Shown here: positions 1,102-46,563 of the stretch, piece after piece
Numbering within the stretch: the stretch's first letter is position 1
How the letters are laid out: every line of letters begins with the position of its first letter
Virus record (IMG/VR): IMGVR_UViG_3300042945_002100
Coordinates: 1-53,246 of that record
Origin: a virus
Lineage: Duplodnaviria; Caudoviricetes
Direction: 5' to 3' (one strand)
Length of the DNA stretch: 53,246 bases
Translations under genes and position numbers: made by a program
Notes under the pieces: generated by a model
The model's database searches: none
Told to the model about the DNA's origin: nothing
The model's input: the letters and a program-made list of their open reading frames with translations, nothing else

Positions 1102-1947
1102 ATGGCTGCAATCAACACGCGACAAAAACTGGTGGATTATTGCTTTCGGCAACTTGGCGCACCGGTTGTCGAAATAAATGTTGACGATGAACAAGTAGAT
1201 GATAGAGTCGATGATGCCCTTAGATACATGTCGGAATACCATTTTGATGGAGTCGAAAGGGTATACCTCAAATATCAACTGACTCAAGCAGACATTGATC
1301 GAAAATACCTGTTACTTGAAGCCGACAATTCATCAAGTTTGAGTTACGCAGATCGATATCAGACGATGACCGAAGCAGGATTAACAGGCGGAACTCCTGC
1401 TCACTTGTCGGGCGGTGTTGTCCCGATTGATAACTTGATCACAAGCGTAACAAAGATATTTCACATATCTCAGCAAACCATCGATATGTTCGATGTTCGC
1501 TATCAGTATGCCTTGAATGATCTTTATACATTCGGAACGATTGACCTGATCCAATATGATTTGACGCAGCAATATCTTTCCTTGTTGCGACAGTTCCTTT
1601 CTCCCGAAAAGCAAGTCGAATTCAGTCGTGTGACAAATCGTCTTGAGATTCACATGGATTGGAAAATTGTAAAACCTGGAGCATATCTTATTATTGAGTG
1701 TTATCGCATTCTTGATCCCCGCGTACACCCTGAAATATACGAGGACAGAATGTTGAAGAAATACCTCACCGCACTCATCAAGCGGCAATGGGGCGTGAAT
1801 ATGAGCAAGTACAGCGGCATCAAGATGCCAGGTGATGTTACGCTTCGCGGAGTGGACATTGCCACGGAAGCACAAAAAGAAATAGATGAAATCGAAAAGG
1901 AAATCATCACGAAATACGAACTTCCTGTTGATTTCATGATGGGATAA
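1102..1947 (+). CDS. gp13: Neck protein gp13
   Basis: LVDYCFRQLGAPVVEINVDDEQVDDRVDDAL, LKKYLTALIKRQWGVNMSKY, ELPVDFMMG; synteny. Confidence 0.92.
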   Translation: MAAINTRQKLVDYCFRQLGAPVVEINVDDEQVDDRVDDALRYMSEYHFDGVERVYLKYQLTQADIDRKYLLLEADNSSSLSYADRYQTMTEAGLTGGTPAHLSGGVVPIDNLITSVTKIFHISQQTIDMFDVRYQYALNDLYTFGTIDLIQYDLTQQYLSLLRQFLSPEKQVEFSRVTNRLEIHMDWKIVKPGAYLIIECYRILDPRVHPEIYEDRMLKKYLTALIKRQWGVNMSKYSGIKMPGDVTLRGVDIATEAQKEIDEIEKEIITKYELPVDFMMG

Positions 1948-1948
1948 A

Positions 1949-2821
1949 ATGGCAGTAAATCCATATTTCAACAAGTTCAAGAATCTTTCCGAGCAAAATC
2001 TCGTGGAGGATTTGACCATAGAGGCCATAAAGATTCATGGCATGGAGATGTACTATATCCCGAGAACAATGGTTCACAAGGATGATTTCTTCGGTGAAGC
2101 GGCGTATTCAAGATTCAATTCATTCAAAATGATAGAGATGTACATGGACACCACCACGGCATTTGAGGGTGGTGACCAATTCACTAAGTTTGGCTTTGAG
2201 GTGAGAGATAGCGTGAAGTTCACGGTTTCTCGCAAGCGATTCAAAAGAGAAACCGGAATGGCAAGACCAATGGAGGGCGATCTTCTTTTCTTGCCCCTCA
2301 ACAAAGGTTTGTTTGAGATTAAGTTCGTAGAACATGAAAATCCATTCTATCAATTAGGCAAACTTCATTCCTACCAGATGACTTGCGAACTTTTCCAATA
2401 CAGCGAGGAAAAGTTGAATACGGGAATACCCGAAATAGATGCGGTAGAGGAAGTTGCATTCAAACTTCAACTCACACTAGGAGCAACAAGTGGAACAGGA
2501 ACTTTTGCAAAAGGCGACTTCGTTTATCAGCCTTCGGGTGGGTCGATTACGGGAAACTTTTCGACGGCGACTTCAAAAGCAACCGTATATTCTTGGAACC
2601 CGCAGCAACCGTCGAGTATGGTTCTGGTGGATTCGCTTGGCGGCTGGAGTCTCACGGGAGGATATGTAACAAAGTCGGACAACACAGCATATTACCCTAT
2701 TGCAGCATCAGGAAGCACGGAGGCATTCGGTACGCTTGTAGACAATTCCAATGCCGCCATACAGGCAGAAGCCGATGGCTTCCTGAACTTTGATGAGAAT
2801 CACCCATTCGGAGAGCCTTGA
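1949..2821 (+). CDS. gp14: Neck protein gp14 with C-terminal extension
   Basis: NPYF..EQNLVEDLTIEAIKIHG, RPMEGDLLFLP, FEIKFVEHENPFYQLGK, FDENHPFGEP. Confidence 0.92.
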   Translation: MAVNPYFNKFKNLSEQNLVEDLTIEAIKIHGMEMYYIPRTMVHKDDFFGEAAYSRFNSFKMIEMYMDTTTAFEGGDQFTKFGFEVRDSVKFTVSRKRFKRETGMARPMEGDLLFLPLNKGLFEIKFVEHENPFYQLGKLHSYQMTCELFQYSEEKLNTGIPEIDAVEEVAFKLQLTLGATSGTGTFAKGDFVYQPSGGSITGNFSTATSKATVYSWNPQQPSSMVLVDSLGGWSLTGGYVTKSDNTAYYPIAASGSTEAFGTLVDNSNAAIQAEADGFLNFDENHPFGEP

Positions 2822-3615
2822 TGTTCGAATATTACTATCATGGCACTATAAGAAAGGCAGTTGTTGCCTTTGCCAATCTCTTCAACAACATTCATATTGC
2901 AAGATACGACTCAAGCAAAGTGGAAGTTGAAAGAATAAAGGTTCCCATTGCATATGGTCCAAGGCAGAAATTCATCAGGAGACTTGAAAGAATCGGAACA
3001 GATTTTGATCAAGCGGCAGTTAAGTTAGAAACATATCTTCCAAGACTTTCGTTTGAGATGCAAAACATCACATTCGATTCCTCTCGAAAATTGTCAACGA
3101 TGAATTCAACGGTTGCTGCACTCAATGCAAATCAATTAAAAAGAAGATATGAGCGGGTTCCTTATAACATTGATCTTTCGTTGAGCATCATGACAAAAAA
3201 TACGGAGGATGCATTACAGATATTTGAGCAAATCATTCCTTACTTTCAGCCCGATTACACGGTTTCTATCAACATGAATGAAACCGACATGGATGTGGAT
3301 GTTCCTGTTGTATTCAAGAATGCAATACTATCTGAAGGCGATGATGGAAGTTATGGTGATTACGGGACAAGAAAAGTCACAATCATGACTCTTTCGTTCA
3401 CCATGAAACTGTATCTGTATGGACCGATTAAGGCGGCACCCGTCATTCGTTCCGTGGAAGCATCGTTTACTGCTCGCGGCGGAACCGGAAACATAACAGC
3501 AGCATACGGACCTTCAGGATCAAATCATAAAGTTACAGTACAAGCCGTGACAGGAGCCACAGGATACACGCCAGGAACGACAGGTCAGGTAGTGGTCAAT
3601 ATCACTACATTCTGA
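2821..3615 (+). CDS. gp15: Tail sheath stabiliser/completion protein gp15
   Basis: YYHGTIRKAVVAFANLFNNI, IKVPIAYGPRQKF, LPRLSFE, VPYNI, EQIIPYFQP. Confidence 0.92.
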   Translation: MFEYYYHGTIRKAVVAFANLFNNIHIARYDSSKVEVERIKVPIAYGPRQKFIRRLERIGTDFDQAAVKLETYLPRLSFEMQNITFDSSRKLSTMNSTVAALNANQLKRRYERVPYNIDLSLSIMTKNTEDALQIFEQIIPYFQPDYTVSINMNETDMDVDVPVVFKNAILSEGDDGSYGDYGTRKVTIMTLSFTMKLYLYGPIKAAPVIRSVEASFTARGGTGNITAAYGPSGSNHKVTVQAVTGATGYTPGTTGQVVVNITTF

Positions 3616-3628
3616 AAGAGGATTCATC

Positions 3629-4093
3629 ATGGGAAATGTTGACGAAAATTTGTCTGATGCTTTGAACTTGCCGAAACCCGAACCTGCAAAGGAACCGACC
3701 ACAATTCAGACAGAGGTCAAGAGTGTAAAAGTCAATAGAGTCGATGCAGACAGAGACTATTCCGAAGTCAGGGACAATCTCAAACGGATAATAGAGAAAT
3801 CCGAAGAAGCAATAGAGAATATTCTTGAAGTTGCCGTTGAAAGCCAGAATCCCCGTGCTTACGAGGTTGTTGCTCAGTTGATATCCGCTTCTCTTGAAGC
3901 AAACAATAAATTGATGCATCTTCACAAGCAGATCAAGGATATCAAGAAGGAAGAACCTGGTAAAACTACAAATGTCACAAACAACAGCATATTCGTAGGA
4001 AACACTGCTGATTTGCAAAAAATGATAAGAAACATGAACAACAAGATGATTGCCGATCAAACGGAGAACGACGATGCCTCGCAAACAGGGTGA
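3629..4093 (+). CDS. gp16: Terminase small subunit gp16
   Basis: DYSEVRDNL, PRAYEVVAQLI, NNSIFVGNTADLQK. Confidence 0.9.
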   Translation: MGNVDENLSDALNLPKPEPAKEPTTIQTEVKSVKVNRVDADRDYSEVRDNLKRIIEKSEEAIENILEVAVESQNPRAYEVVAQLISASLEANNKLMHLHKQIKDIKKEEPGKTTNVTNNSIFVGNTADLQKMIRNMNNKMIADQTENDDASQTG

Positions 4094-5768: not shown

Positions 5769-5773
5769 AAATG

Positions 5774-5822: not shown

Positions 5823-7613
5823 ATGGGATTCCAAATCAGTCCTGGCGTAACAATCACTGAACGAGACTTGACCACGATCATTCCTGCGGTGGCTACCACA
5901 AATGCCGGTATTGCAGGCTATTTCAAGTGGGGTCCGGCAGATCAGCGCGTAATCGTGACCGATGTCGCCAATCTTGTCGCTCTTTACGGCACCCCCAACG
6001 ATGACAACTTCAAGTATTGGTTCAGCGCAGCCAACTTCCTAGGCTATGGAAACAATCTTCAGGTTGTTCGTGTCACCACAGCCGGAGCATCGGCAGGCAA
6101 TGCAGGACAAACCGGATCACAAGGATACATTCCTAACAGTGATACTGATCTTCCTACAGTTAGCACTTCTTCGGGCATGTTCTTTGGAAAGTATCCAGGA
6201 TCTCTTGGAAACAGTCTTGCTATCGAAATTTGTGGTGCTGACGCTGGTCTAACCGCCTTCAATGCATGGACTTACAGTTCTCAATTTGATTCGGTTCCAA
6301 ATACTTCCTATTATGCAGGAACAACTCTTGGCTTGACTGACGCAAATGATGAATTCCATCTTGTCGTTCTTGATCGCCTTGGTCAATTTAGCGGAACAAT
6401 AGACACGGTTCTTGAAAGATTTCAGGGTCTTTCGCTTGATCCAAATGCAATCGAGCAAGATGGAACGAATGCGTATTTCAAGAGCAAAATAAACAACGAG
6501 TCTAAGTATATCGGAGTCGCGGGTTCAATCTCGTCATTTGCGTCCGCTCCTTTCATTGCGGGAGCAGTGACAGGTTCTGGCTTGACAGCAGGAACCAACA
6601 ATGGCGTTGGAACATGGAGTTTCAACCCTTCATCTGTAACAGGCAGCAGATATGACACAGGTTCTACAACCGGTGTAACTGCAACAGGCATTTTCCGTCT
6701 TAATCTTCAAGGTGGAACCGGTGAATTTGAATCGTCAGGCAGTCAGTTGTTTGCAACAGGAAGAGGTTATAATCTCTTTGCAGATCCAGACCAGTCTGAT
6801 GTATCTCTTCTGATTGGTGGACCAATCGATGTCACGAATGTTGGAAGCCTTCGTGATATCGTAAATGCAAGAAAGGATTGCGTGGCATTTGTCTCGCCCG
6901 TAATTAATAATGCATCCACAGATGAAGCCACTAAGTTGTCCACAGCCAAGACTTTCAGAAATGCTGTGGGTAACTCTTCCTATACCGTAATCGATACGGG
7001 CTACAAGTATCAATATGATTCGTACAATGACACTTATCGATATGTGCCGCTGAACGCAGACATTGCCGGTCTTTGCGCTCGTACAGACCTTACCAACGAT
7101 CCTTGGTATTCGCCTGCGGGATTCAATCGTGGGGTGGTTCGAAACACGATTCGCCTTGCATATAATCCCAATAAGACTCACCGCGATGAACTGTATCAGA
7201 ACGCCATCAATCCTGTTATCACCATGCCAGGAGAGGGAACTTTGCTGTTCGGTGATAAAACCGCGCAGACCAAGCCCTCGGCATTTGACCGCATCAATGT
7301 TCGTCGTTTGTTCATCGTACTTGAGAAGGCAATTGCAACGGCTGCCAAATACAGCCTTTTCGAATTCAACGATGCCTTCACACGCTCACAATTCCGCTCG
7401 ATGGTTGAACCGTTCTTGCGCGATGTGCAAAATCGTCGTGGTATTACTGACTTCCTCGTCAAGTGCGATGAGTCAAATAACACGGCTGAAGTCATAGATG
7501 GCAATCGGTTTGTTGCAGACATCTACATCAGACCTGCCCGTAGCATCAATTTCATCCAATTGAATTTCATTGCTACCAAGACAGGTGTTTCGTTCACAGA
7601 GGTAGGCGGTTAA
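5823..7613 (+). CDS. gp18: Tail sheath protein gp18
   Basis: FQISPGVTITERDLT, PWYSPAGFNRG, SAFDRINVRRLF, RPARSINFIQLNF. Confidence 0.96.
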   Translation: MGFQISPGVTITERDLTTIIPAVATTNAGIAGYFKWGPADQRVIVTDVANLVALYGTPNDDNFKYWFSAANFLGYGNNLQVVRVTTAGASAGNAGQTGSQGYIPNSDTDLPTVSTSSGMFFGKYPGSLGNSLAIEICGADAGLTAFNAWTYSSQFDSVPNTSYYAGTTLGLTDANDEFHLVVLDRLGQFSGTIDTVLERFQGLSLDPNAIEQDGTNAYFKSKINNESKYIGVAGSISSFASAPFIAGAVTGSGLTAGTNNGVGTWSFNPSSVTGSRYDTGSTTGVTATGIFRLNLQGGTGEFESSGSQLFATGRGYNLFADPDQSDVSLLIGGPIDVTNVGSLRDIVNARKDCVAFVSPVINNASTDEATKLSTAKTFRNAVGNSSYTVIDTGYKYQYDSYNDTYRYVPLNADIAGLCARTDLTNDPWYSPAGFNRGVVRNTIRLAYNPNKTHRDELYQNAINPVITMPGEGTLLFGDKTAQTKPSAFDRINVRRLFIVLEKAIATAAKYSLFEFNDAFTRSQFRSMVEPFLRDVQNRRGITDFLVKCDESNNTAEVIDGNRFVADIYIRPARSINFIQLNFIATKTGVSFTEVGG

Positions 7614-11511: not shown

Positions 11512-11889
11512 ATGGCTAATTCAACATCGTATCTCGTAAGAACAAGAAATCGCTGTGTTGTCGGAGTATATGGAGATACCGCAGGAACAATCACTTTCGG
11601 CATCACTAACTCTGCATTTGATGCAAATGACTCGTTGGATAGCAGAATAACAAATTCGTCTGCTTGTCTTTCACGAATTGTATATGGATTAAGCGGAGCA
11701 GGAACCTTGCTTCGATTCGGTCCAACAGGAGGAACTGCGTTCATGCTGTCTCCGAATTCATCAGGTTCAATTGATTTCGAAAGAATCACTTTGCCAAACA
11801 ATGCCGTATCTCCCGCAGATGGAACTTTCAAAGTAGAAGTTCCAGCAAGCACCACGGTGACCGCGTATTTGGAATTCGTACCATTCTAA
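11512..11889 (+). CDS. Hypothetical virion protein upstream of gp21
   Basis: AAGGA RBS; beta-rich 125 aa; position typical of T4-like head operons. Confidence 0.65.
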   Translation: MANSTSYLVRTRNRCVVGVYGDTAGTITFGITNSAFDANDSLDSRITNSSACLSRIVYGLSGAGTLLRFGPTGGTAFMLSPNSSGSIDFERITLPNNAVSPADGTFKVEVPASTTVTAYLEFVPF

Positions 11890-13744: not shown

Positions 13745-13799
13745 ATGCAGTTAGACACAGTTACTTTCAACAACAACTAATTTGTCACAGGAGACAAAA

Positions 13800-15161
13800 A
13801 TGGACTTGACAATCTCAGAAGCACTACAAAAGAAGTGGAAGGCAATCGTTGAACACGCAGATCTTCCCGAAATTAAGGATAACTGGCGCAAGACAGTTAC
13901 CACAACTCTACTTGAGAACCAGGAGCAATACCTCCGTGAGGCCGCACCAGTAAACTCTGCTGGCGATATGCCCAACACCGGCGGCGTTGCAAAGTGGGAT
14001 CCAATCCTCATCTCGCTCGTTCGCCGTGCAATGCCTAACCTCATTGCATACGACATCTGCGGCGTTCAGCCAATGAGCGGACCTACTGGTCTTATCTTTG
14101 CTCTTCGTAGCCGTTACAATTCGCAGAGTGGTCCCGAGGCTCTATTCAGCGAAGCCGATACCCGTTTCGGTGGTTCAGGCGGAACCCCTGGTTATACCGG
14201 TGTTGGATATACTGGTGGTCTGACCTATGGTGGTTCGGATCCTTTCTTCGGTGCTGCCGAAGCAAACCTTAACAATGCCGTAACCGACACCGATGCAGTA
14301 ACTCGCCCCATGACAACTGGCATGGGCGAAGCACTTGGTGACGCTGCCAACAATGCTTTTGCACAGATGGCATTCAGCATTGAGAAGACAACCGTGACTG
14401 CAAAGACACGCGCCCTCAAGGCCGAGTACACCATGGAACTGGCTCAAGACCTCAAGGCCATTCACGGTCTTGATGCTGAGACAGAACTCGCCAACATCCT
14501 CTCTGCTGAAATTCTTGCAGAAATCAATCGTGAGGTTGTTCGCACCATCTACCGCAACGCCAAGTTGGGAGCCAAGTCTGGTACAACTCAGACCCGTGGT
14601 ATCTTCGACCTCAATGTTGACTCCAACGGTCGTTGGTCGGTTGAGAAGTTCAAGGGTCTGCTCTTCCAAATTGAGCGCGAGTGCAATCAGATCGCCAAGG
14701 AAACTCGTCGCGGCAAGGGCAATTTTGTCCTCTGCTCTAGCGATGTTGCTTCGGCTCTCGCAATGTCTGGTGTCCTTGATTATGCTCCTGCCCTGTCCAC
14801 CAACCTTAATGTTGATGATACAGGAAACACCTTTGCAGGCGTTCTCAACGGCAAGTTGCGTGTATACATTGATCCATACTATTCGACCACCCTCGCTTCG
14901 GACTTCTTCTGTGTCGGTTATAAGGGTTCCAGCCCGTATGACGCTGGTATCTTCTATTGCCCCTATGTTCCGCTACAGATGGTTCGTGCGGTTGGTGAGC
15001 AGTCGTTCCAGCCCAAGATCGGATTCAAGACCCGCTACGGCATGGTCAACAATCCATTCGTCATGGGCAGCGATAATGCACCAATTCAGGATGTCGATAA
15101 CGCCAACGCTTCACGCAGTAACCAGTACTACCGTATCGTCAAGGTTAACAACCTCTTCTGA
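13800..15161 (+). CDS. gp23: Major capsid protein gp23
   Basis: DPILISLVRRAMPNLIAYDICGVQPMSGPTGLIFALRSRY, RALKAEYTMELAQDLKAIHGLDAE, FQPKIGFKTRYG. Confidence 0.98.
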   Translation: MDLTISEALQKKWKAIVEHADLPEIKDNWRKTVTTTLLENQEQYLREAAPVNSAGDMPNTGGVAKWDPILISLVRRAMPNLIAYDICGVQPMSGPTGLIFALRSRYNSQSGPEALFSEADTRFGGSGGTPGYTGVGYTGGLTYGGSDPFFGAAEANLNNAVTDTDAVTRPMTTGMGEALGDAANNAFAQMAFSIEKTTVTAKTRALKAEYTMELAQDLKAIHGLDAETELANILSAEILAEINREVVRTIYRNAKLGAKSGTTQTRGIFDLNVDSNGRWSVEKFKGLLFQIERECNQIAKETRRGKGNFVLCSSDVASALAMSGVLDYAPALSTNLNVDDTGNTFAGVLNGKLRVYIDPYYSTTLASDFFCVGYKGSSPYDAGIFYCPYVPLQMVRAVGEQSFQPKIGFKTRYGMVNNPFVMGSDNAPIQDVDNANASRSNQYYRIVKVNNLF

Positions 15162-17714: not shown

Positions 17715-18274
17715 TTCAATCAGATTTGGTCTATACTGAAAAGGATTACGGAATTTCTGATAGAACCGCATCTGGAATAGAGTCCGTAAATCCATCCAAT
17801 ACAAATCTTGCACTTCCTACCAATTTTCTGTTTACCATGACAAAACTGCCGAATCTTGCATATTTTGTTCAAGAATTTTCTTTACCAGACGCAGGAGGTG
17901 AACCATTTTCCTTGGAATACATGATAGGTCCGACCATAAAACTTCCTAAATCTACCGCAGTATATGGAAACATATCACTTAAATTCCTGATCAATGAAGA
18001 TTTTTCCAATTACCACTCATTGATTAATTGGATGCTTGAAAATGTACCATACCGACAATTTCTTCCTGTTCAAAAAACAAATTATGGCTCAAGCGACAGC
18101 GCAAGCCTAATTGTCCTCACAAACAGACGAGTACCATACCGAAAGTTTGAAATGAAAGGGTTAATGCCTACCGATTTATCAGGAATTGAATTCAGCAATG
18201 AAGCAACCGATGCCACATTCTTGACAGCCACAGTAAAGTTTGCGATTTCGGATTTTAAGATGGTTGACCTTTGA
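17711..18274 (+). CDS. gp3: Tail completion protein gp3-like (second copy)
   Basis: NLALPTNFLFTMTKLPNLAYFVQEFSLP, FLINEDFSNY, GLMPTDLSGIEF; precedes uvsY. Confidence 0.8.
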   Translation: MIQSDLVYTEKDYGISDRTASGIESVNPSNTNLALPTNFLFTMTKLPNLAYFVQEFSLPDAGGEPFSLEYMIGPTIKLPKSTAVYGNISLKFLINEDFSNYHSLINWMLENVPYRQFLPVQKTNYGSSDSASLIVLTNRRVPYRKFEMKGLMPTDLSGIEFSNEATDATFLTATVKFAISDFKMVDL

Positions 18275-34106: not shown

Positions 34107-34403
34107 TCACTCGGATGCTTCGATTGCTTCTTGCATCGAAGAGCAAACGAGAAAGCCAGGTGTCCCTTCGCCTTGCCATGCACCAACTACATTAAATTCC
34201 ATAAATTCTATGGCCTCTTCTTCCGTTGGAATACCCTGTTGCATTAAGATTTCAATGCATTTTTCGTAGTCATAAATTGCAACTGCGGGCTTGCCACAGC
34301 GTCGAATAAGTCCCATGAACGCGGTTTCAAACCCATTGGCCCAAAGAGTTTCTTCGATTCTGGGCTTGATGTCATCCCACTTCTTCGTCTGTGTCGGTTC
34401 CAT
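34107..34403 (-). CDS. Conserved phage hypothetical protein
   Basis: GFETAFMG..AIYDYEKCIEIL..EEAIEFMEFNVVGAWQGEGTP. Confidence 0.7.
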   Translation of the reverse strand: MEPTQTKKWDDIKPRIEETLWANGFETAFMGLIRRCGKPAVAIYDYEKCIEILMQQGIPTEEEAIEFMEFNVVGAWQGEGTPGFLVCSSMQEAIEASE

Positions 34404-35019
34404 AATCTTCTGACTTCAACTTTCTCTGTAGTTTCTTTGCCCAAATCTCGGTCACGGTGAGTGGATATTCAACGGACTCAAACTTGAACCCACGCGCTCC
34501 TGTTGAATTTTTCTTCTTGAGAGTTGTGTAGATTCCATTCAATCGCATTGGATTGAACTTTCCTACGGGCGCAACAACATTAAGACCAGGCCACGCACCT
34601 TCCCGCGTACCAATCAGCACCGCTTCCTCATCTTTCGGATCCTTAAAGAGTACGCAGTCCTGTCCATACTTCTGACCCATCTTTTTGGCAAATCCCTTGA
34701 TGCCGCCTACCGAACCAGGAGAATCATCACGACCGATGATCAGAAACGATTCTTCGATGACTTGAATCTTCTTGTCGCCATAGTCTTCTTCGTAGCGACC
34801 GATCAGTTTTTCAAACCCGAACCCCGCAGCACGAATGTCATTTTCAAGTTTTGCGTTGTTGGTTCGGTTTGCTTGCAGGGAGATAGGCTCTCCTGTTTCC
34901 TTGTTCTTGAAGCGAAACGCAGTAAGGAGTGCAATCGGACGCTTCTGCACATGGGAAGCAATTCTAGAAAGCGAGACCTCGTTGAGTGGTTGTCTGTCAA
35001 ATCGATCTTCCTGCTGCAT
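34372..35019 (-). CDS. S-adenosylmethionine lyase (T3 SAMase-like)
   Basis: LLTAFR, IRAA, GRYEE, EESFL, YGQDCVL align with T3 SAMase motifs as recalled (LVSAFR, LRAA, GCYRE, EEKTV, WEQDCVL). Confidence 0.75.
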   Translation of the reverse strand: MQQEDRFDRQPLNEVSLSRIASHVQKRPIALLTAFRFKNKETGEPISLQANRTNNAKLENDIRAAGFGFEKLIGRYEEDYGDKKIQVIEESFLIIGRDDSPGSVGGIKGFAKKMGQKYGQDCVLFKDPKDEEAVLIGTREGAWPGLNVVAPVGKFNPMRLNGIYTTLKKKNSTGARGFKFESVEYPLTVTEIWAKKLQRKLKSEDYGTDTDEEVG

Positions 35020-35191
35020 TGCTTTCTCCTGCAAGTTCCTTTGTTTCCTTCAATTGTATGTAGAGTTTCTTGATCTCTTCAAACGCTTTGGACGATGTGA
35101 ACTTCCCTTCGTCCTCCAACTGCAATATCCACGCGACCTTTCGGGCGAACTCTCCTATGTTCGCATGGATTATGAAATCTTCGATGTCCAT
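34997..35191 (-). CDS. Hypothetical protein
   Basis: AAGGA RBS; FARKVAWILQLEDEGKFTSSKAFEEIKKLY. Confidence 0.6.
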   Translation of the reverse strand: MDIEDFIIHANIGEFARKVAWILQLEDEGKFTSSKAFEEIKKLYIQLKETKELAGESNAAGRSI

Positions 35192-37045: not shown

Positions 37046-38038
37046 TTAATAGATGACTGCACCGCAATCAAGCATGGCACAGTCGGAATCAAACATTCTT
37101 CGTGCAAGCATCTGCATATTATATTCGGGCTTCCAACCAAGCAAAGTCCGCGCTTTGGTGGAGTCTCCGAGTAGGTATGGAACCTCGTTTGGACGCATCA
37201 AGCGAGGATCAATCTTGACATAGTTGTGCCAATCTCCAAGTCCTGCATAGGTGAACACTTCTGCGAGGAATTGTTCAACGCTGTAGGTTTCGCCTGTCGA
37301 AATCACATAATCGTCAGGCTTGTCCTGCTGTAGCATGAGCCACATTGCATTGACATAATCCTTGGCATGTCCCCAATCTCGCTTTGCATCAAGGTTGCCA
37401 AGGCGCAAGTCCTTCTGTAACCCCTTCTTGATTTTTGCCGCTGCCATCGTGATCTTGCGAGTGACAAATGTTTCGCCACGGCGTGGACTTTCGTGATTGA
37501 AGAGAATACCCGAAGACAGGTGAAGACCATAAGCCTTGCGGTATACTCCAACCATTTGATGGGCATACAACTTGGCTACTGCGTATGGGGAAACAGGCAT
37601 CATCCTGCTGTTCTCGTTGTAGCCCTTTTCCGTGTAGTCGGTGCTGTCACCGAACATTTCAGACGAGGATGCCTGATACATTCGTGTGGTCGGGGAGACA
37701 TTCTTGATTGCATTCAGGATGTTGAGAGTTCCACGGCAGATGCCGTCAGAGGTATAATCAGGAATTTCAAATGAAACTGCGACATGACTCTGTGCAGCAA
37801 GATTGTAGACTTCATCGATCTTTTCTTCCTTGAAAATGTGATTGATGAAGTAGGCATCGTGCAGATCATAATATTTCACGGAAAAATTTGGATTTTCCAT
37901 CAGATGATCGATGCGCCCCGTGCTGATTGTCGATGTCCTGCGTTTGAGACCAATGACTCGGTATCCTTTCTCTAGCAGAAGTTCTGCCAAATAGGAACCG
38001 TCTTGACCATTTACCCCCGTGATCATTGCTGTTTTCAT
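37046..38038 (-). CDS. gmd: GDP-mannose 4,6-dehydratase
   Basis: ITGVNGQDGSYLAELLL, NLAAQSHVAVSF, YQASSSEMFG, PYAVAK, LFNHESPRRGETFVTRKI, RDWGHAKDY. Confidence 0.96.
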   Translation of the reverse strand: MKTAMITGVNGQDGSYLAELLLEKGYRVIGLKRRTSTISTGRIDHLMENPNFSVKYYDLHDAYFINHIFKEEKIDEVYNLAAQSHVAVSFEIPDYTSDGICRGTLNILNAIKNVSPTTRMYQASSSEMFGDSTDYTEKGYNENSRMMPVSPYAVAKLYAHQMVGVYRKAYGLHLSSGILFNHESPRRGETFVTRKITMAAAKIKKGLQKDLRLGNLDAKRDWGHAKDYVNAMWLMLQQDKPDDYVISTGETYSVEQFLAEVFTYAGLGDWHNYVKIDPRLMRPNEVPYLLGDSTKARTLLGWKPEYNMQMLARRMFDSDCAMLDCGAVIY

Positions 38039-38052
38039 AATGAAATCGCCTT

Positions 38053-38580
38053 TCAATAACCAAGTTTCTTTAGTTGTCGAATTGTGTCCTCTGCACTCTT
38101 ATGCAGAATGCCAATACCACCTTTTGCTTCCCATTCTTTGATGTTTGGTTCATAATCATCGATTAGAATATTGGGAATGCCGTTTTTCTTGGCAAAATTC
38201 TGCTTGTCCTTGCGAAGCACCAAGTTTATTTCTGTTGGAAAAGGACTCATGTTTGTCTTAATCCAGTGCATCTTATCTTGCTTAGATGTGAACTGCCATG
38301 ACTTTGTGTGTGCAGAAAGTATATGTGCCCCATGCTTGGATACATAGGCCCACAGCCGCTTTCCATCTGCCATCCAAGGAAGATTGGCAAATAAATTAGG
38401 ATGTTCTACATCAAACTTCTTTTTGTTTTTTTCAAGCCATATTTCGAATTCTTTCGGCTTGATTCTTGGAATTCCTGCGAGTTTTGTCATTCCACCGATG
38501 ATGTCAACGAGAACACCGTCCATATCACAGAAAATGATACCCTGCGGGGTTTCGGTGATGTGAATGTCGAAATTCTTCAT
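38053..38580 (-). CDS. HAD-family 5'(3')-deoxyribonucleotidase-like protein
   Basis: IFCDMDGVLVD, LPWMADG, ILIDDYEPNIKEWEAKGGIGILH. Confidence 0.85.
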   Translation of the reverse strand: MKNFDIHITETPQGIIFCDMDGVLVDIIGGMTKLAGIPRIKPKEFEIWLEKNKKKFDVEHPNLFANLPWMADGKRLWAYVSKHGAHILSAHTKSWQFTSKQDKMHWIKTNMSPFPTEINLVLRKDKQNFAKKNGIPNILIDDYEPNIKEWEAKGGIGILHKSAEDTIRQLKKLGY

Positions 38581-38935: not shown

Positions 38936-39006
38936 TTCTCCCGCTAGGATTCGAACCTAGACCAAGAGGATCAAAACCTCTTGTGCTACCGTTACACTAC
39001 AGGAGA
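38936..39006 (-). tRNA. tRNA-Gln(TTG)
   Basis: Cloverleaf; AGAGG-TTTTGAT-CCTCT anticodon arm; TTCGAAT T-loop; CCA not encoded. Confidence 0.92.
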
Positions 39007-39081
39007 GAATTACTTCTATCCTGCATTTTGTTGCGAGTTGTCCCGTTCTTGCTTCAGAGCGAACATCCTTTCAGGCAACGG

Positions 39082-39088
39082 TATTTAT
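39082..39088 (-). promoter_or_regulatory. Late promoter inside the tRNA cluster
   Basis: ATAAATA on the minus strand just 3' of tRNA-Lys. Confidence 0.5.
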
Positions 39089-39091
39089 CAA

Positions 39092-39164
39092 TGCTCTCGG
39101 CGGGACTTGAACCCGCAACCAATTGATTAAAAGTCAACTGCGCTACCAATTGCGCTACGAGAGC
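39092..39164 (-). tRNA. tRNA-Lys(TTT)
   Basis: GCTCTCG/CGAGAGC acceptor; CTTTTAA loop. Confidence 0.94.
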
Positions 39165-39196
39165 GTAAGAAATTAATTCTAGGCTGTTTTGGTTAG

Positions 39197-39270
39197 CGTC
39201 CCTGGGTGGATTCGAACCACCGACTTATTGCTTAGAAGGCAATTACTCTATCCAACTGAGTTACAGGGAC
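39197..39270 (-). tRNA. tRNA-Arg(TCT)
   Basis: GTCCCTG/CAGGGAC acceptor; CTTCTAA loop. Confidence 0.94.
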
Positions 39271-40324: not shown

Positions 40325-40327
40325 CCA

Positions 40328-41310: not shown

Positions 41311-41381
41311 AGCCTCCAATCAGAATTGAACTGATATCTCTTGATTACAAATCAAGGGTATTACCATTATACTATGAAGGC
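41311..41381 (-). tRNA. tRNA-Thr(TGT)
   Basis: GCCTTCA/TGGAGGC acceptor; CTTGA-TTTGTAA-TCAAG arm. Confidence 0.88.
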
Positions 41382-41386
41382 AAGAG

Positions 41387-41468
41387 TGGGAGCGGAGGGA
41401 TTCGAACCCCCGTAGCCGATGGCAGCAGATTTACAGTCTGCCCTCGTTGACCGCTTGAGTACACTCCC
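41387..41468 (-). tRNA. tRNA-Tyr(GTA)
   Basis: GCAGA-CTGTAAA-TCTGC arm; long variable arm; TTCGAAT. Confidence 0.94.
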
Positions 41469-41876: not shown

Positions 41877-41886
41877 ATGTTTCCTT

Positions 41887-42087
41887 TCAGTCCATCCATT
41901 TTCTGTGCTTAAAGAGATGCCAAAGTCGGTGAATCAGAATTGACCATCCAAGAGAAATCCACGAATGGCTTATATAATTTCCTTGTGGGCAAACCATGCA
42001 GTAAACGATCTTGTGCTTGTCTTTCGGAAAGTCCGAATCGCCAATAACCACAACGCGCTCTGCTCCCACTTTTACAGCCTTTTGCAC
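41887..42087 (-). CDS. Hypothetical protein
   Basis: GTG start just after the upstream stop. Confidence 0.5.
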   Translation of the reverse strand: MQKAVKVGAERVVVIGDSDFPKDKHKIVYCMVCPQGNYISHSWISLGWSILIHRLWHLFKHRKWMD

Positions 42088-42089
42088 GA

Positions 42090-42407: not shown

Positions 42408-42524
42408 GTTTATCCTTCTTGGAAGGCTAGTTTTGCGAAAATCTGTCCTTCTCATAAGGACAGATGTTTGTATACGAAACCACCCCACGATGGGATGGCT
42501 CGGAGAGAGAGAGAAACTTATTCG

Positions 42525-42833
42525 TTATTCAGGGACAGTCTGATCGTAGTAGAACTGCCCTTCTTCGGTCAGGTTGTAGTAGGGGTTGCCCTGCTCATCC
42601 CACACGGTCACCTCAACCATCTTGCCTTCGGTCTCCGTGGGCAGGGAGGCGTTCTCCTCCATGGCTCCCATCAGCATGGAGACTGCCATGGACGGATTGT
42701 TGGTCAGCATCCACACCGCCATCTCCTGAAGAGACATGGTGGCAGGGCGATCCTTATAGGACATCCAATGATTCTCGGCTGTCTCGGTCGCAGGGGCGGG
42801 AGGGGTCAGGACGGCTGTTGCTGTCTGTTTCAT
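42525..42833 (-). CDS. Hypothetical early protein
   Basis: Downstream of a sigma70 promoter. Confidence 0.6.
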   Translation of the reverse strand: MKQTATAVLTPPAPATETAENHWMSYKDRPATMSLQEMAVWMLTNNPSMAVSMLMGAMEENASLPTETEGKMVEVTVWDEQGNPYYNLTEEGQFYYDQTVPE

Positions 42834-42852
42834 GGGTTCTCTCTACAATTGA

Positions 42853-42880
42853 ATAATACCAAATACACCGTGTTAGTCAA
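42853..42880 (-). promoter_or_regulatory. Sigma70-type promoter
   Basis: TTGACT-N16-TATTAT with TGn. Confidence 0.65.
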
Positions 42881-43068
42881 GGCACCATGCAACAAATTTC
42901 TTGTCCAAATTATTATCGGACATTTTGAATTATCCACATTCCAGTTCAAACCGTGCAAGCATTTCTTGTCGTTTTTCTTCTTGTTCTGACAAATCTTTCA
43001 GGCATTTAACAAGAAGTTCCTGAAAGTTTTTACTCTGATTTTTACATTGTTCAGAGGTTACACTCAAA

Positions 43069-43467
43069 TTATTGTGCAAATGCGTATTGCAATAACCATA
43101 CTGATGCTGCAATGTCTACCTCCGTGAATTGATGGCCTGTCCAATTTATCGCCATCTTACTTGTTCCGCTCCCGACATACAAGGCTCGTTTGGAAATTCT
43201 GTATAGTGGAGTACCCGTACTTGTTCCCTTGAAAACAACATTGTTCTTGATATTAAACAAACAGTTGCTTGTTCCCGAACCGGAAAATACCTTCCCATCG
43301 ACAACCGTAAGAAGTGTTTTCGCCGTAGAGGTTCCGAGAAAAACTTGATTCTTTCGAACATTGCACAAAGCATTTCCGGTGCTGCTCTGATCATAGAATG
43401 TATTCTCATACTTCTTGAAGAGCGGAGTGCCTGTGCCGAGACCTTTGTAGACTTGCGTGATTCCCAT
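43069..43467 (-). CDS. Beta-repeat protein (about 19-aa repeats)
   Basis: Repeats VYKGLGTGTPL, VFLGTSTAKTL, VFSGSGTSNCL, VFKGTSTGTPL, LYVGSGTSKMA. Confidence 0.65.
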   Translation of the reverse strand: MGITQVYKGLGTGTPLFKKYENTFYDQSSTGNALCNVRKNQVFLGTSTAKTLLTVVDGKVFSGSGTSNCLFNIKNNVVFKGTSTGTPLYRISKRALYVGSGTSKMAINWTGHQFTEVDIAASVWLLQYAFAQ

Positions 43468-43535
43468 GAAAATATGTATGAATGAAAAGACGGCACCTTT
43501 CGATGCCGTCTTTCGGTTTGAACTCAAACGATAAA

Positions 43536-45107
43536 TTACTTTTCGCCCTTGCCTCCCGATGGTTTCTCAAAGGAGAGAGATGAAGTAGACTTGGAACGAT
43601 TGTCGTAATTTCCGACCATGTTTGTGTTGTACAGTCTTATGCCTGTATCTCCACGAACAGTGCAAGTTGAATCCTCAAAATTTATGCCTCCTTCAATAGT
43701 TGCACTTGCTCCTGAACCAGAAATTGCACCGAAAATCCAATTGTCGGCTTGAGGGGCATATCGCAAATCAAGCACGGAATTTTCGGCCATGGCAAGATTT
43801 CGTATCGTAAATGTACTGTCGCCATTGACATTTTCCATCGCACGAATCGTGGTGCCTTCGACATACATGTTGTCGATTGTGGAGTCACCGAAGAATTCAA
43901 TGATCCAAGGTCGTTGAGAGTTACCGCTTGAGGAGGAGAAAGGACCAATTTCATTGAACACTGTGAAGTTGGGAGCGGTGAATGTTGCGCCTGCATCGGG
44001 CAACCCTACGAGAATTGTAGGACTGTAATCATAATTGTCATTTCCTGGACTTGTCGTATATTGATCATAAAGATATACGCCTGAAGAGAATGCCTGTCCC
44101 GTTACGCTTGGTAAAAATCCAAGTGCATTTTCGACTTGTGTGCCGTTTATTGTACAGGATAGAGTAATCTCTCTTCCGTCAAATCCCGATTGTCTGCGAG
44201 ACAGATAATAGGGGTTTGGACCAGCAGGGACAACAAATGAACCGATGGTTGAATTGCGATCTATGTTGATGTCGCTGTTGAGCGTGGTGACGGTTTGCGC
44301 GGTGATACCATTCAAATTGACTCTGTATGGTCTTGCGGTTGCCAAATTGAATCCGGACAATCCCGATTCGATGGTAATACTTCGGAATCCACCACCATTG
44401 ATGGTGACATTTCCAAGACCACGATCACTTGCATTTGGACCAGTTCCTATGTTCGAATTCAGGAGCAGCGAGGTCAATGTTGCGGCGGTCAGACCGATAT
44501 TGGTGTTTCTTGATTGAACCGTGTTGAGATTCACAACACTGTAATTGGGGACGGAATTAAAGTCAATTCCACCAATTTCAAAGGAATCGCTTATTCTGCC
44601 GGTTGTATGAATCAACAAAGTTCCAGAGACTTTCAGAGTAAGCCCACGGTTTACATGCCCTGCGGTCGCACCGGTAATTTCCGATGCATCAAGACCAAGC
44701 ACATTGACACAGTAGTTGTAGATTTCGCCGGTTATTCCTCCACCGAAATAGGCGAACGGATATCCTGCATTATGCATGTATACGGTGGCAGATCTGAGGC
44801 TCGATGATTGAGTCGTTCCTGTCCCTCCGAGCGTATTTCCCGCGATACCGTTTCTCCACTCACCGAGTGCAACAGAACCCGAGTATCCACCATACAAGCA
44901 TGGAGATTGTGCGGTGAATCCTTGTCCTCCAAAACCTCTTCCAAAATAAACAAAGTCATCACGACCAGGAGCGGTAGCAGACACGGCCCAATTTGCCTGT
45001 GAGGTTCCCCATCTAGCGATACGCCAGTTGGATGGGCTATTGAAATCGAATCTGCTAATTCCGGCAGAAGTTGGGCCTCCCTGCCAGTAGTAATAAGCGT
45101 TGGGCAT
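43536..45107 (-). CDS. Gly/Ser/Thr-rich beta-solenoid-like putative virion protein
   Basis: CTAAATA at 45141-45147 and AAGGAG RBS; YYWQGG..FNSPSNW..APGRDDFVYF. Confidence 0.7.
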   Translation of the reverse strand: MPNAYYYWQGGPTSAGISRFDFNSPSNWRIARWGTSQANWAVSATAPGRDDFVYFGRGFGGQGFTAQSPCLYGGYSGSVALGEWRNGIAGNTLGGTGTTQSSSLRSATVYMHNAGYPFAYFGGGITGEIYNYCVNVLGLDASEITGATAGHVNRGLTLKVSGTLLIHTTGRISDSFEIGGIDFNSVPNYSVVNLNTVQSRNTNIGLTAATLTSLLLNSNIGTGPNASDRGLGNVTINGGGFRSITIESGLSGFNLATARPYRVNLNGITAQTVTTLNSDINIDRNSTIGSFVVPAGPNPYYLSRRQSGFDGREITLSCTINGTQVENALGFLPSVTGQAFSSGVYLYDQYTTSPGNDNYDYSPTILVGLPDAGATFTAPNFTVFNEIGPFSSSSGNSQRPWIIEFFGDSTIDNMYVEGTTIRAMENVNGDSTFTIRNLAMAENSVLDLRYAPQADNWIFGAISGSGASATIEGGINFEDSTCTVRGDTGIRLYNTNMVGNYDNRSKSTSSLSFEKPSGGKGEK

Positions 45108-45255
45108 TGGATCTCCTTCAGAGTGGGTTCAAACCTCACCTATTTAGCAAATTTGGATATTGAATCATGATTGTGATGAAAGATATAAAAATGAAAAAAC
45201 ATAGATATTGTACCGTTTTCTTCGGAATGTAACGCATCACGCAGGAGAACCAAGA

Positions 45256-46563
45256 ATGGCAATCTATCAATGGGTAGGTGGACATACAGGCTACACTGGT
45301 CCTGGTAGTGGATATGATATTGGATCAGAACTTTGGGTTCACCCAATCAGCGGAGCCGTGTCGGCATCAGGTGATTCTTATTTTGGACCATATTGGTGGG
45401 GGAATGTCAAAAATTGGAAACAAGTGATTTCTCCCACGGGTCAATATGGACTCTTTTCGTATGTCAATGCATCGACCCTTCCTAGAGGTGGAGATACCGT
45501 GTGGTTCAAGGGAGGATATAGCGGTACTTCGGGCAGTGTCAATACATACGCGGTGTCCTGCAAATATGGAGGAATGTCAGGCGATGGTGTGACTGCGTCA
45601 GGATTGACTTCTTGGGCAGGAGGATGGACCTCTTCAACCGATAGATTCAATCCGATTACATTTCTTCTTGAGGATACATTCAAACCGCAATCCCATCCAC
45701 ATGGTCTTGAAACTGGAGAAATAGGAGTTGGTGCTAATTTTGTGGGAGATTTTAGTTCATTTAACCCGCTGAATGTAAGAGTAAAGACATTCTCAATCAG
45801 GGATACAAGTTCATCTGAATCAAATGCCGTGAAAATTGCATTGAACAATGTTGCCTCTGGTGCAACTTCAGATTACGGGATCATGAACATAAATCAAGGC
45901 GGATGGTACATCAGTCCTTTTGATTATGGAGTGGTGTTCCTTAGAGGACAATGGGAAGAAATTTCTCAATATAGTGGAAGCGTGTTTACAGAGACAACGA
46001 CAAATAATAACGGTGGAAGATGGTCTATTTACTCATACCCCGTTAGATTTTCAAGTTCAAAAAATTCAAATTTTGGAACTTTCACGGTTCAGCCTATTTC
46101 CTTACGAGATGGTGGTTATATTTGGGGATCGGCGGGGTCCGCTCCAAATATAAGAATATTTGGATGGGGATCAACAAGTGGTTCTTCTACTTCGACTGTC
46201 ACTGTCGGAAATCTTGGCGATGGCGGAAGTTCAAGCATTACTTTGCTCGAAATGTATCCTGGAGCATCATTTGGTCCAACGGTGAAATTCGGTTCTTGCA
46301 TTATCGATTCGCTTAATTGCGTTAGTGGAAACATTCAGGTAAGTGAACTTGCAACACGCAATAACAGTGTCGTGATTCGCGACGGAAGAATCAGACAAGG
46401 AACCATTGATATGGCACATCCATTTGATCCAACTTGGCAACAATTCATACTAGGATATAGCCCTTCGGATGAGGGATTTAGAATAGATGACAATTCGGTG
46501 GTTATCAAAGGATATCCAGGAGTCAACTTGAAGACTGCAACACCCGAAACACCGAACTCTTGA
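45256..46563 (+). CDS. Paralog of 43536..45107, putative virion protein
   Basis: AGGAG RBS; YQWVGG..WGNVKNW..LPRGGDTVWF..CKYGGMSG. Confidence 0.7.
   Translation: MAIYQWVGGHTGYTGPGSGYDIGSELWVHPISGAVSASGDSYFGPYWWGNVKNWKQVISPTGQYGLFSYVNASTLPRGGDTVWFKGGYSGTSGSVNTYAVSCKYGGMSGDGVTASGLTSWAGGWTSSTDRFNPITFLLEDTFKPQSHPHGLETGEIGVGANFVGDFSSFNPLNVRVKTFSIRDTSSSESNAVKIALNNVASGATSDYGIMNINQGGWYISPFDYGVVFLRGQWEEISQYSGSVFTETTTNNNGGRWSIYSYPVRFSSSKNSNFGTFTVQPISLRDGGYIWGSAGSAPNIRIFGWGSTSGSSTSTVTVGNLGDGGSSSITLLEMYPGASFGPTVKFGSCIIDSLNCVSGNIQVSELATRNNSVVIRDGRIRQGTIDMAHPFDPTWQQFILGYSPSDEGFRIDDNSVVIKGYPGVNLKTATPETPNS

Follow-up and report, generated by a model that had tools for sequence, protein, structure and literature searches.

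SgtA of C. difficile is a glycosyltransferase of 358 amino acids, with a GT-A domain at residues 1-260 and a TPR domain at residues 262-358, whose gene adjoins bclA3 and which adds beta-O-linked N-acetylglucosamine (GlcNAc) to BclA3, at Thr within its GPT collagen repeats; according to the cited passages, only UDP-GlcNAc was used among the three donors tested, and Ser was accepted in vitro (PMC7157674). Relatives of the SunS/ThuS type are described as modifying Ser, Thr or Cys of glycocins with GlcNAc or glucose (PMC8620827; PMC12457901), and GmaR of Listeria monocytogenes, in which a glycosyltransferase domain is followed by TPR, as transferring GlcNAc onto flagellin in the cytoplasm (PMC9638930). 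Che8 and related mycobacteriophages glycosylate their capsid and tail-tube subunits with their own glycosyltransferases, the glycans being located at the C-termini (cited in PMC12619734 and PMC11256854), and these virion glycans alter antibody recognition (cited in PMC11256854). A full-text literature search for virion glycosylation in cyanophages and other phages gave nothing beyond this mycobacteriophage work. The subject of this study is a DNA stretch of 53,246 bases, the entire IMG/VR virus record IMGVR_UViG_3300042945_002100, which was analysed over its full length and is referred to as the window. A first-pass annotation, made from the sequence alone, had seen Gly-x-Thr-Gly/Ala motifs in its virion proteins and had read them as an acceptor sequon for a phage-encoded modification, probably O-glycosylation of Thr. 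Our analysis supports a predicted glycosyltransferase of the protein- or peptide-acting kind, referred to as the GT2-TPR enzyme, as being encoded in the virion operon of this phage. An enrichment of the Gly-flanked Thr motif by about 2.5x-3.3x is confined to virion proteins and to the clade that carries the enzyme.

The gene of the GT2-TPR enzyme is cut by the edge of the window. It is complete on contig L001, which overlaps window positions 1-3658 at 99.86% and reaches 7.1 kb further upstream. The gene and its downstream neighbour are located as follows:

3-257, plus strand: C-terminal 84 residues of the GT2-TPR enzyme, the gene being cut by the window; 100% identical to P0002, a PF00535 protein of 401 amino acids
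L001:6170-7375, same strand as the fibre genes and gp13: complete gene of the enzyme (401 amino acids), from the L001 overlap
257-1063, plus strand: collar-domain protein of 268 amino acids, PF07484 at 4.9e-6 and PHROG tail-fibre families; 0 copies of the strict motif G-x-T-[GA]

A search with the 84-residue fragment found 75 longer relatives, most of which carry PF00535, and the complete enzyme itself matches PF00535 with 37.2 bits (cut-off 23.3) and PF13704 with 31.5 bits (cut-off 27.5). The window proper, which holds only the last 84 residues of the enzyme, has 0 PF00535 matches, and no glycosyltransferase was found elsewhere in it. The TPR tail that had been recognised at its edge was confirmed: the open reading frame (ORF) at 3-257 is the C-terminus of the GT2 enzyme, ten helices are modelled at residues 207-398 of the complete enzyme, behind a GT-A domain at residues 33-195 (AlphaFold2 model with a pLDDT of 90 and a pTM of 0.83), and over positions 205-331 the family profile aligns with a consensus TPR protein at 5.7e-5. 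Two relatives of the enzyme (P0024 and P0026) carry Pfam TPR families, and in the enzyme itself none was found at E-values up to 0.01. Asp64 and Asp118-Ala-Asp120 are invariant among 32 relatives, and the latter, judged by its position in the GT-A fold, is probably the catalytic DxD.

Compared with the PDB by Foldseek, the model matches SunS (7msn) at 2.4e-15 (387 columns of 401 residues) and ThuS (7msk) at 1.4e-13, both over the full length. The next match, RmlT, follows at 8.6e-7, eight orders of magnitude weaker than SunS, and the weaker matches comprise teichoic-acid glycosyltransferases, aligned over the GT-A part only, and TPR proteins including CTPR and the TPR of OGT, aligned over the helical part only. 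When the family profile was compared with all PDB sequences, it matched five distinct sequences from four proteins, namely GmaR (1.1e-15), two constructs of SunS (1.3e-11 and 2e-11), ThuS (2e-8) and the consensus TPR protein mentioned above, GmaR, SunS and ThuS being the only glycosyltransferases among them. By analogy with these enzymes, the GT2-TPR enzyme probably acts on a protein or peptide.

The likeness to SunS and ThuS (PDB 7msn, 7msp and 7msk), which act on peptides, extends over the full-length fold of a GT-A domain plus a helical repeat domain, with a TM-score of about 0.6 over 385-401 aligned columns, whereas the sequence identity is only 14-19%. SunS and ThuS belong to bacteriocin clusters and their substrates are small helix-loop-helix glycocin peptides; the phage gene lies among tail-fibre, fibre-assembly, collar and neck genes instead. 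The NCBIfam equivalog model for SunS, TIGR04195, scores 36.8 bits against a cut-off of 350, so the enzyme is a relative of SunS and not a member of its family. A glycocin-like or host-directed function, in which a small secreted peptide, a host pilin or a host surface protein would be modified, for example to block superinfection, is in our view very unlikely. That the best structural matches are glycocin enzymes, and that the PDB entry gives the SP-beta prophage as the origin of SunS, speaks for such a function; the low TIGR04195 score and the seven-gene neighbourhood of fibre, collar and neck genes speak against it, as does the fact that no transporter gene, peptidase gene or small ORF resembling a glycocin precursor was recognised next to the GT2 gene, in a search that was not aimed at small ORFs.

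GmaR is the best sequence match in the PDB (6.8e-9 with the single sequence, 1.1e-15 with the profile), but it differs in its length of 637 amino acids with an extra linker and anti-repressor domains, as described, and its glycosyltransferase domain alone can be aligned (query residues 33-148). The comparison with SgtA concerns architecture and acceptor as given in the published description, and sequence homology is no part of it. Both enzymes combine an N-terminal GT-A domain with C-terminal TPR (358 amino acids in SgtA, 401 here), the acceptor Thr of BclA3 stands in G-P-T-G, which has the same shape as G-x-T-G, and sgtA adjoins the gene of a collagen-like surface protein, which may be compared with the fibre gene next to the phage enzyme. 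A cytoplasmic, metal-dependent enzyme is a further point listed for SgtA/BclA3 (PMC7157674). They differ in that the substrate of SgtA is a spore coat protein, with virion proteins as the candidates here, and in that BclA3 has long repeats, while most candidate sites in the phage are solitary. With the mycobacteriophages the phage shares, according to the cited work, a phage-encoded glycosyltransferase and virion proteins as targets, which are candidate targets in our case. However, those are siphoviruses of Actinobacteria with glycosyltransferase genes near the right genome end (PMC11256854), whereas here, in a T4-like myovirus, the gene lies within the virion operon and many different proteins carry candidate sites.

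In BFVD, the closest structural relatives of viral origin are GT2 proteins from uncultured marine phages and from the giant viruses Harvfovirus, Pithovirus LCPAC302 and Indivirus, with E-values of 7e-35 to 7e-33, query-normalised TM-scores of 0.82-0.84 and 32-36% identity over 366-390 columns. Many of them are longer, multidomain proteins of 625-1164 amino acids, and their functions are not assigned. Among isolated phages, a tblastn search with the 84-residue fragment gave no match; the full-length P0002 matched 12 records, of which the best is 35% identical and none is a cyanophage.

On one strand of L001 and the window, the genes follow in the order tail fibre of 873 amino acids (with an endosialidase-chaperone domain), ORF of 385 amino acids, fibre-assembly-like protein of 131 amino acids, fibre-like protein of 634 amino acids, GT2, collar protein and gp13. 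The 634-amino-acid protein directly upstream of GT2 starts with about eight collagen-like triplets ending in GPT-GAT-G. GT2 is followed by gp13 in 61 of 80 loci anchored on GT2, the remainder being mostly too short to tell. In Syn9, S-CREM1 and P-RSM1, a fibre or structural gene directly abuts gp13, and in S-SM2 a fibre-assembly gene does so, with no such enzyme between.

The strict motif was defined as G-x-T-[GA] and was counted in a curated set of 66 window ORFs with 15,770 residues. It was observed 34 times against 10.9 expected from whole-protein shuffles. Local G/T-rich composition explains only part of this excess, since the expectation rises to 14.0 and 14.5 under block shuffles of 12 and 8 residues, still below 34, and 0 of 1000 local shuffles reach the observed count. 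The motif is also the commonest among the 24 orderings of the same four elements (34 versus 6-28). A DNA-level repeat as its source is ruled out by the codons used at the 34 sites, which are mixed for Gly, for Thr and for Gly/Ala and mark it as a feature of the protein level. In the ten window virion proteins that could be assigned by homology, G-x-T-G occurs 12 times against 3.6 expected under 12-residue local shuffles, a count that 0 of 200 shuffles reach. The three unassigned G/T-rich ORFs contain 6 against 2.2 (reached by 3 of 200 shuffles), and the other 53 ORFs 2 against 2.4. Uninterrupted runs of G-x-y triplets, as in collagen-like proteins, were not found in the window proteins, where the copies are solitary or paired. 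Every peptide string quoted in the first-pass annotation is present in the protein to which it was ascribed, and the scarcity it had noted in the portal, terminase, gp46 and gp47 is in fact an absence of the strict motif from the portal, TerL, gp46 and gp47. Its proposed enrichment beyond composition also stands, although it is weaker than it had looked: in a blind screen of 2865 three-letter patterns with at least 5 copies each, G.TG ranked 29 (20 against 8.45) and G.TA ranked 50 (14 against 5.66).

The two halves of the motif behave differently in relatives of the phage. For G-x-T-G, 33 copies against 11.9 expected (2.77x) were found in the window together with the upstream fibre genes of L001, and 76 against 30.9 (2.46x) in G001, a syntenic relative of 177 kb that is 98% complete and whose proteins are 35-92% identical to those of the window. 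In the same two sets, G-x-[not T]-G reaches only 1.01x-1.03x, which rules out a general Gly periodicity of the collagen or beta-helix kind as the cause; the half motifs G.T[not G] and [not G].TG reach 1.13x-1.20x, with 1.19x and 1.20x in the window and L001, and G..G reaches 1.18x in the window with L001, 1.14x in G001 and 1.09x in controls. An initial blind DIFFERENTIAL screen in G001 was dominated by one repeat protein of 2841 amino acids. G001 was therefore compared again with two control genomes, in a blind differential screen covering 5721 patterns, after proteins of more than 2000 amino acids had been dropped from both sets and a collagen-like protein of 511 amino acids had also been removed; G.TG ranked 21 of 5721 and G.TA 1563 of 5721, the latter with 42 observed against 23.8 expected in G001 and 59 against 41.1 in the controls. 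Consequently, only one half of the originally proposed form G-x-T-G/A can be upheld. The real signal is Gly-x-Thr-Gly, shaped like a collagen-like triplet with Thr in third place plus the Gly of the next triplet, and its copies are mostly solitary, with runs of at most 2-3 triplets outside the collagen-like proteins. The 2841-amino-acid protein (G001 165699-174224; L175/L226) contains 18% Gly and 13% Thr with the patterns GL.V, S.TG, GLS and SVT, and presumably has a short internal repeat.

The enrichment was found again in sequences outside the window. In the four fibre-region genes of L001 that the window lacks, G.T[GA] was counted 21 times against 6.6 expected from local shuffles (per gene 10/3.08, 2/1.02, 3/0.26 and 6/2.24). 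G001 contains 162 copies against 79.9 expected, concentrated in the structural parts of the genome; G.TG was found there 108 times against 40.2 in the structural bins and 7 times against 7.1 in the rest of the genome, and when the collagen-like protein and the 2841-amino-acid repeat protein are taken out of the structural bins, 69 against 24.2 are left. Ten motif-rich ORFs of G001 were scanned, and nine of them gave matches to PHROG families of the tail-fibre, baseplate-hub, baseplate-wedge or virion-structural kind. For Syn9, S-CREM1, T4, S-SM2 and P-RSM1, the complete records yielded no homologue of P0002, and in their annotated virion proteins no significant excess of G.TG was found either (observed/expected: Syn9 8/5.7, S-CREM1 4/1.9, T4 2/3.2, S-SM2 9/6.1, P-RSM1 8/8.6). 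The genome-wide values for G.T[GA] are 1.39x in Syn9 and 1.29x in S-CREM1.

A second comparison was made with 80 more distant T4-like loci that were anchored on TerL (51-60% identity among the matches listed) and in which no homologue of the enzyme was detected; some of these GT2-free loci have less than 10 kb upstream, and a glycosyltransferase elsewhere in those genomes is possible. The tail terminator gp15 carries 2.39 motifs per protein in the clade, with at least one in 38 of 38 sequences, versus 0.17 in the GT2-free loci, where 8% of 36 have one, and the sheath protein gp18 carries 3.38 (2.55x) versus 1.51 (1.09x). In gp16 and gp23, conserved motif copies occur in both the clade and the GT2-free loci. 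GT2 is present in all 11 loci that extend at least 6.6 kb upstream, which is a weak test because most of these contigs had already been reached through the GT2 query; 18 loci without a GT2 match have less than 5.7 kb upstream of gp15 and are too short to judge. As regards the co-occurrence of the motif with glycosyltransferase and gmd genes in related phages, the motif excess is confined to the GT2 clade and the link to gmd is unspecific, and the contrast concerns one clade.

The virion proteins and motif-bearing ORFs of the window to which these counts refer are the following:

1102-1947, plus strand: gp13-like neck protein, phrog_211 at 2e-41; one GLTG at residue 93
1949-2821, plus strand: gp14-like neck protein, phrog_460 at 1.2e-68; 0 strict motifs
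2818-3615, plus strand: gp15-like tail terminator, PF16724 over residues 5-220, phrog_227
3478-3585, plus strand: C-terminal tail of gp15, residues 221-256, with GGTG, GATG and GTTG beyond the conserved domain
5823-7613, plus strand: gp18 tail sheath, phrog_23 at 9.2e-120, Pfam sheath domains at residues 28-84 and 349-582
6105-6722, plus strand: variable middle of gp18, residues 95-300, with five motifs at residues 95, 142, 253, 284 and 297
11512-11889, plus strand: ORF of 125 amino acids with 3 strict motifs; no PHROG or Pfam match and no homologue in G001
13782-15161, plus strand: gp23 major capsid protein, phrog_138 at 1.8e-163, PF07068
14169-14234, plus strand: variable loop of gp23, residues 130-151, with two GYTG, aligned to the hypervariable stretch of gp23
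15255-17714, plus strand: protein of 819 amino acids, phrog_45 at 2.7e-27, with a C-terminus (residues 657-818) resembling gp19/tail tube
43536-45107, minus strand: G/T-rich ORF of 523 amino acids with 7 strict motifs; no match in PHROGs, Pfam or NCBIfam
45208-46563, plus strand: G-rich ORF of 451 amino acids with 3 strict motifs; no family match

The placement of the motifs in variable inserts or tails, as claimed in the first-pass annotation, applies to the gp15 tail, the middle of gp18 and the gp23 loop, but not to two conserved copies, GPTG in gp23 and GGTG in gp18, which are considered below. In gp15, the motifs begin at residues 221, 246 and 253. The gp15 tails are divergent and cannot be aligned between subclades, yet they repeatedly contain G-[VI]-T-A-G-x-Y and G-x-T-G. 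In three contigs (L049, L051 and L052, 16768-19161), the gp15 ORF comprises about 797 amino acids and represents gp15 fused to a long C-terminal extension. All five motifs of gp18 fall between the Pfam sheath domains, within residues 85-348; in the AlphaFold2 model (pLDDT 73.7), those at 253 and 284 lie in segments with a pLDDT below 50 and those at 95 and 297 in coil. Contig L077 encodes tandem sheath paralogues (L077:9392-11161 and L077:11199-13058) that are 46-50% identical to the gp18 of the window. The hypervariable stretch of gp23 at window residues 130-151 is what we take to be the insertion domain of T4, and the motif regions of gp15, gp18 and gp23 are assumed to be surface-exposed by comparison with T4 structures. 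The GLTG of gp13 is retained in 11 of the 62 clade sequences that were aligned, including that of the window. For gp14, which had been named as a motif carrier, the three quoted strings are present and none of them fits G-x-T-G/A. The N-terminal part of the 819-amino-acid protein, about 640 residues, holds 5 motifs and is absent from the G001 orthologue of 182 amino acids; a second tube-like ORF (gp3-like) follows at 17711-18274. An ESM Atlas search with the ORF at 43536 gave viral hypothetical proteins only, with scores below 0.9. The divergent pair of G-rich ORFs at 43536-45107 (minus) and 45208-46563 (plus) lies beside a gene for a 6-fold beta-flower protein (PF21786; 43069-43527, minus strand). 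No homologue of these two ORFs, nor of the ORF at 48560-50146, was found in the otherwise syntenic G001, and the region 43069-46563 looks like a variable cassette.

The position of the enzyme gene next to a fibre that starts with collagen-like triplets, resembling that of sgtA beside bclA3 in the published description (PMC7157674), suggests a narrower function, in which only the neighbouring 634-amino-acid fibre and other collagen-like fibres would be glycosylated, as with SgtA and BclA3, and the scattered single copies in gp15, gp18, gp23 and the baseplate proteins would be non-substrates. A parallel is found in the Tunturiibacter phage Tunturi_5, whose tail fibre gp29 (1469 amino acids; L166:24942-29351) contains 66 G-x-T-[GA] and long collagen-like runs of GPT, GAT and GIT. 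All 35 of the 35 triple G-x-T runs in this 308-kb genome lie in gp29, 4-8 kb from a glycosyltransferase that is 35% identical to the phage enzyme; the gene of this homologue adjoins a nucleotidyltransferase gene. Nevertheless, we consider the restriction to collagen-like fibres improbable, as it leaves unexplained the 2.5x-3.3x enrichment of solitary copies in non-collagen virion proteins, which is found in the clade only, and as the short collagen-like stretch of the 634-amino-acid fibre has just two G-x-T triplets.

A structural explanation of the motif has more to recommend it, although we regard it as somewhat unlikely. According to this explanation, G-x-T-G is a building block of the collagen-like or beta-turn kind, the enzyme has another target, such as a polymer or protein of the host surface or a small peptide, and the two occur in the same clade through descent only. 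The clade does contain true collagen-like G-x-T proteins, namely the start of the 634-amino-acid fibre and a fibre of G001 (164191-165726) that is rich in G-A-T and G-P-T triplets in long runs and has 29 motifs. A cyanophage paper, in the passages cited, attributes phage glycosyltransferases to modification of the host surface or DNA (PMC12801897). Against a structural cause stands the observation that most copies are solitary and that Gly spacing in general is not enriched. Likewise, the gp15 tails cannot be aligned and still keep at least one copy in 38 of 38 sequences, which is the behaviour of a short linear motif and not of a fold. In addition, the nearest relatives of the enzyme all act on proteins or peptides and none on polysaccharides, and its gene lies inside the virion operon.

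Several observations weigh against G-x-T-G as a general acceptor of the GT2-TPR enzyme, and some of them also speak for the structural explanation. The first concerns copies that belong to the fold. GPTG at residue 100 of gp23 is kept in all 8 aligned gp23 sequences of the cyanophage type (seven and that of the window) and is thus a fold element; T4 differs at this place. Among 9 clade sequences, 7 retain the GGTG of gp18, and T4 likewise has Gly-Gly there, so that by alignment this Gly-Gly appears to be a fold element that exists without the enzyme, as several motif copies do in enzyme-free phages. Motif 142 of gp18 lies in a predicted helix of the AlphaFold2 model. The gp16-like, small terminase-like ORF at 3629-4093 has a conserved G-x-T-[GA] that is present in 97% of the 31 orthologues from the clade and in 81% of the 43 more distant orthologues, a copy in a non-virion protein that is unrelated to the enzyme. 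In gp14, the enrichment is nearly alike in the clade (2.30x) and in the GT2-free loci (1.70x).

The second group of objections concerns the form of the motif and the way in which it was counted. The strict motif was chosen after inspection of the sequence, and the window taken alone makes an unconvincing case, with G.TG only at rank 29 of 2865. G-x-T-A, which is half of the motif as first noted, is not clade-specific. No enrichment of G-x-S-G/A was found in the window screen or in the differential screen, whereas SgtA, as described, takes Ser in vitro, and a preference for Thr alone also fits a structural cause of the collagen-like or beta-strand kind. The ORFs at 11512, 43536 and 45208 match no family and have no homologue in G001, which is 98% complete, and their virion status is an assumption.

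The third group concerns the comparison between phages. All GT2 carriers form one clade, so the co-occurrence of enzyme and motif is a single evolutionary contrast of one clade with the rest, and no natural loss of GT2 was found within the clade. The control cyanophages have a mild G.TG baseline of their own, 1.30x genome-wide and up to 1.9x in one structural bin. Three distant phages with glycosyltransferases that are 30-35% identical give G-x-T runs near the enzyme gene in one of three cases, the runs lying 4-8 kb away in the first, 224 kb away in the second and being absent in the third. The TIGR04195 score far below its cut-off, mentioned above, also belongs here, and the sugar genes offer no help, as set out in the following.

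The first-pass annotation had pointed to a gmd gene, apparently downstream of a late promoter, as part of a glycosylation system:

37046-38056, minus strand: gmd, GDP-mannose 4,6-dehydratase, PF16363 at 1.6e-121 with 406.2 bits (cut-off 27)
39082-39088, minus strand: ATAAATA 7-mer, between tRNA-Lys and tRNA-Gln and upstream of ORF 38587, NT5C and gmd

The gmd gene is genuine; with TIGR01472 it scores 413.1 bits, just below the equivalog cut-off of 415. However, its link to the motif is unspecific and it is not tied to the GT2-TPR enzyme; SgtA uses a UDP-sugar, and a second gmd of G001 stands beside a different GT2. Strong gmd matches occur in four of five large clade records and a weaker match to a short-chain dehydrogenase/reductase in the fifth; a gene of the GT1 family was not found in these five records. 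The second gmd-like gene of G001 (385 bits; 137184-138450) adjoins a small GT2 in a frame of 204 amino acids, and the two form a sugar cassette of their own, located outside the genome part that the window covers. The late promoter did not hold up, as a canonical T4 late promoter is ruled out by 0 copies of TATAAATA in the window. The ATAAATA 7-mer alone is a weak match; it has 9 copies in the window against 4.18 expected (3 of 100 shuffles reach 9), and the copy at 39082 is a possible late-promoter core.

Judged by its gene content, the window, with a CheckV completeness of 29%, is a fragment of an uncultured T4-like myovirus. Its plus-strand block carries gp13, gp14, gp15, TerL, gp18 sheath, gp19 tube and gp20 portal, then the gp21 protease, gp22, the gp23 capsid protein and two tube-like genes, and finally UvsY, UvsW, gp55, gp47 and gp46. 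A minus-strand block at about 24.9-45.1 kb contains small genes, five tRNAs, an NT5C-like gene and gmd. DNA-level matches to isolated phages are confined to part of gp23; the 22 records matched are without exception Synechococcus phages, with 73-75% identity among the rows listed, and the best isolate match of gp15 reaches 46%. No psbA/psbD-type gene (PF00124) was found in two near-complete relatives, G001 (98%) and G002 (93%). For this reason the host is left open here and the phage is not called a cyanophage; the host of the clade may not be a cyanobacterium.

Further features of the window lie in or near the minus-strand block. The five tRNAs, at 38936-39270 and 41311-41468 on the minus strand, are Gln-TTG, Lys-TTT, Arg-TCT, Thr-TGT and Tyr-GTA. 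The gene at 34372-35034 on the minus strand encodes a member of the S-adenosylmethionine lyase family (PF23780 at 2e-10), which we take to have an anti-restriction function in phages. At 28046-29143 on the same strand lies the gene of a 365-amino-acid protein with a P-loop N-terminus, which matches Zeta_toxin (8.3e-7) and AAA_33 (0.0042) weakly and also phrog_5268, a family without assigned function. The segment 30001-34000 has a GC content of 50.7-52.9%, compared with 39-50% over the remaining window; in it, a plus-strand ORF of 407 amino acids is probably false and was picked by the greedy caller over two minus-strand ORFs.

Taken as a mechanism, the acceptor reading of G-x-T-G would run as follows. 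The GT2-TPR enzyme, encoded in the late virion operon, would act in the infected cell before or during assembly and would transfer a sugar from a nucleotide sugar to the Thr hydroxyl in a Gly-flanked G-x-T-G, while its TPR-like domain would grip the protein substrate. The sites would be of two kinds, collagen-like G-x-T triplets in fibre proteins and, in gp15, gp18, gp23 and baseplate proteins, single copies within variable, exposed regions, and the outcome would be a virion decorated with glycans. The original proposal of a sequon for O-glycosylation is strengthened by the protein-type glycosyltransferase in the virion operon, by the clade- and virion-specific excess and by the precedent of SgtA; it has lost the A variant, the copies that are fold elements, gmd and the promoter. 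That virion proteins are the substrates of the enzyme seems to us an evenly balanced question. The full reading, with G-x-T-G as the acceptor on many virion proteins, draws on sequence statistics and homology and is tentative, its chances being somewhat short of even. Virion substrates, the Thr of G-x-T-G as acceptor and anything concerning the sugar are points that we infer. A still wider picture appears rather unlikely, namely that throughout an aquatic T4-like clade one SunS/SgtA-like enzyme places an O-linked sugar over capsid, sheath, neck, baseplate and fibres by means of a portable G-x-T-G sequon, which would have been derived from collagen-like triplets and scattered by evolution into exposed loops and tails.

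Phage virion glycosylation and protein glycosyltransferases of the SgtA/SunS type are both known, and their combination would be a new variant. If true, it would be the first sequon-defined protein glycosylation in tailed phages outside the mycobacteriophages, and, with 34-36% identical enzymes occurring in giant viruses, it could represent a virion-glycosylation module common to phages and giant viruses and would provide a function for the GT2-TPR family that both share. The enzyme and its peptide would form a pair open to direct assay. Should the structural explanation hold instead, a clade-specific structural element of T4-like virion proteins would have been described, together with a protein-type glycosyltransferase in the virion operon. 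If, on the other hand, the sequon does mark the sites of modification in this abundant uncultured clade, glycosylated virion surfaces would become predictable from metagenomes, which would have a bearing on how virus particles in water adsorb, aggregate, decay and are grazed.

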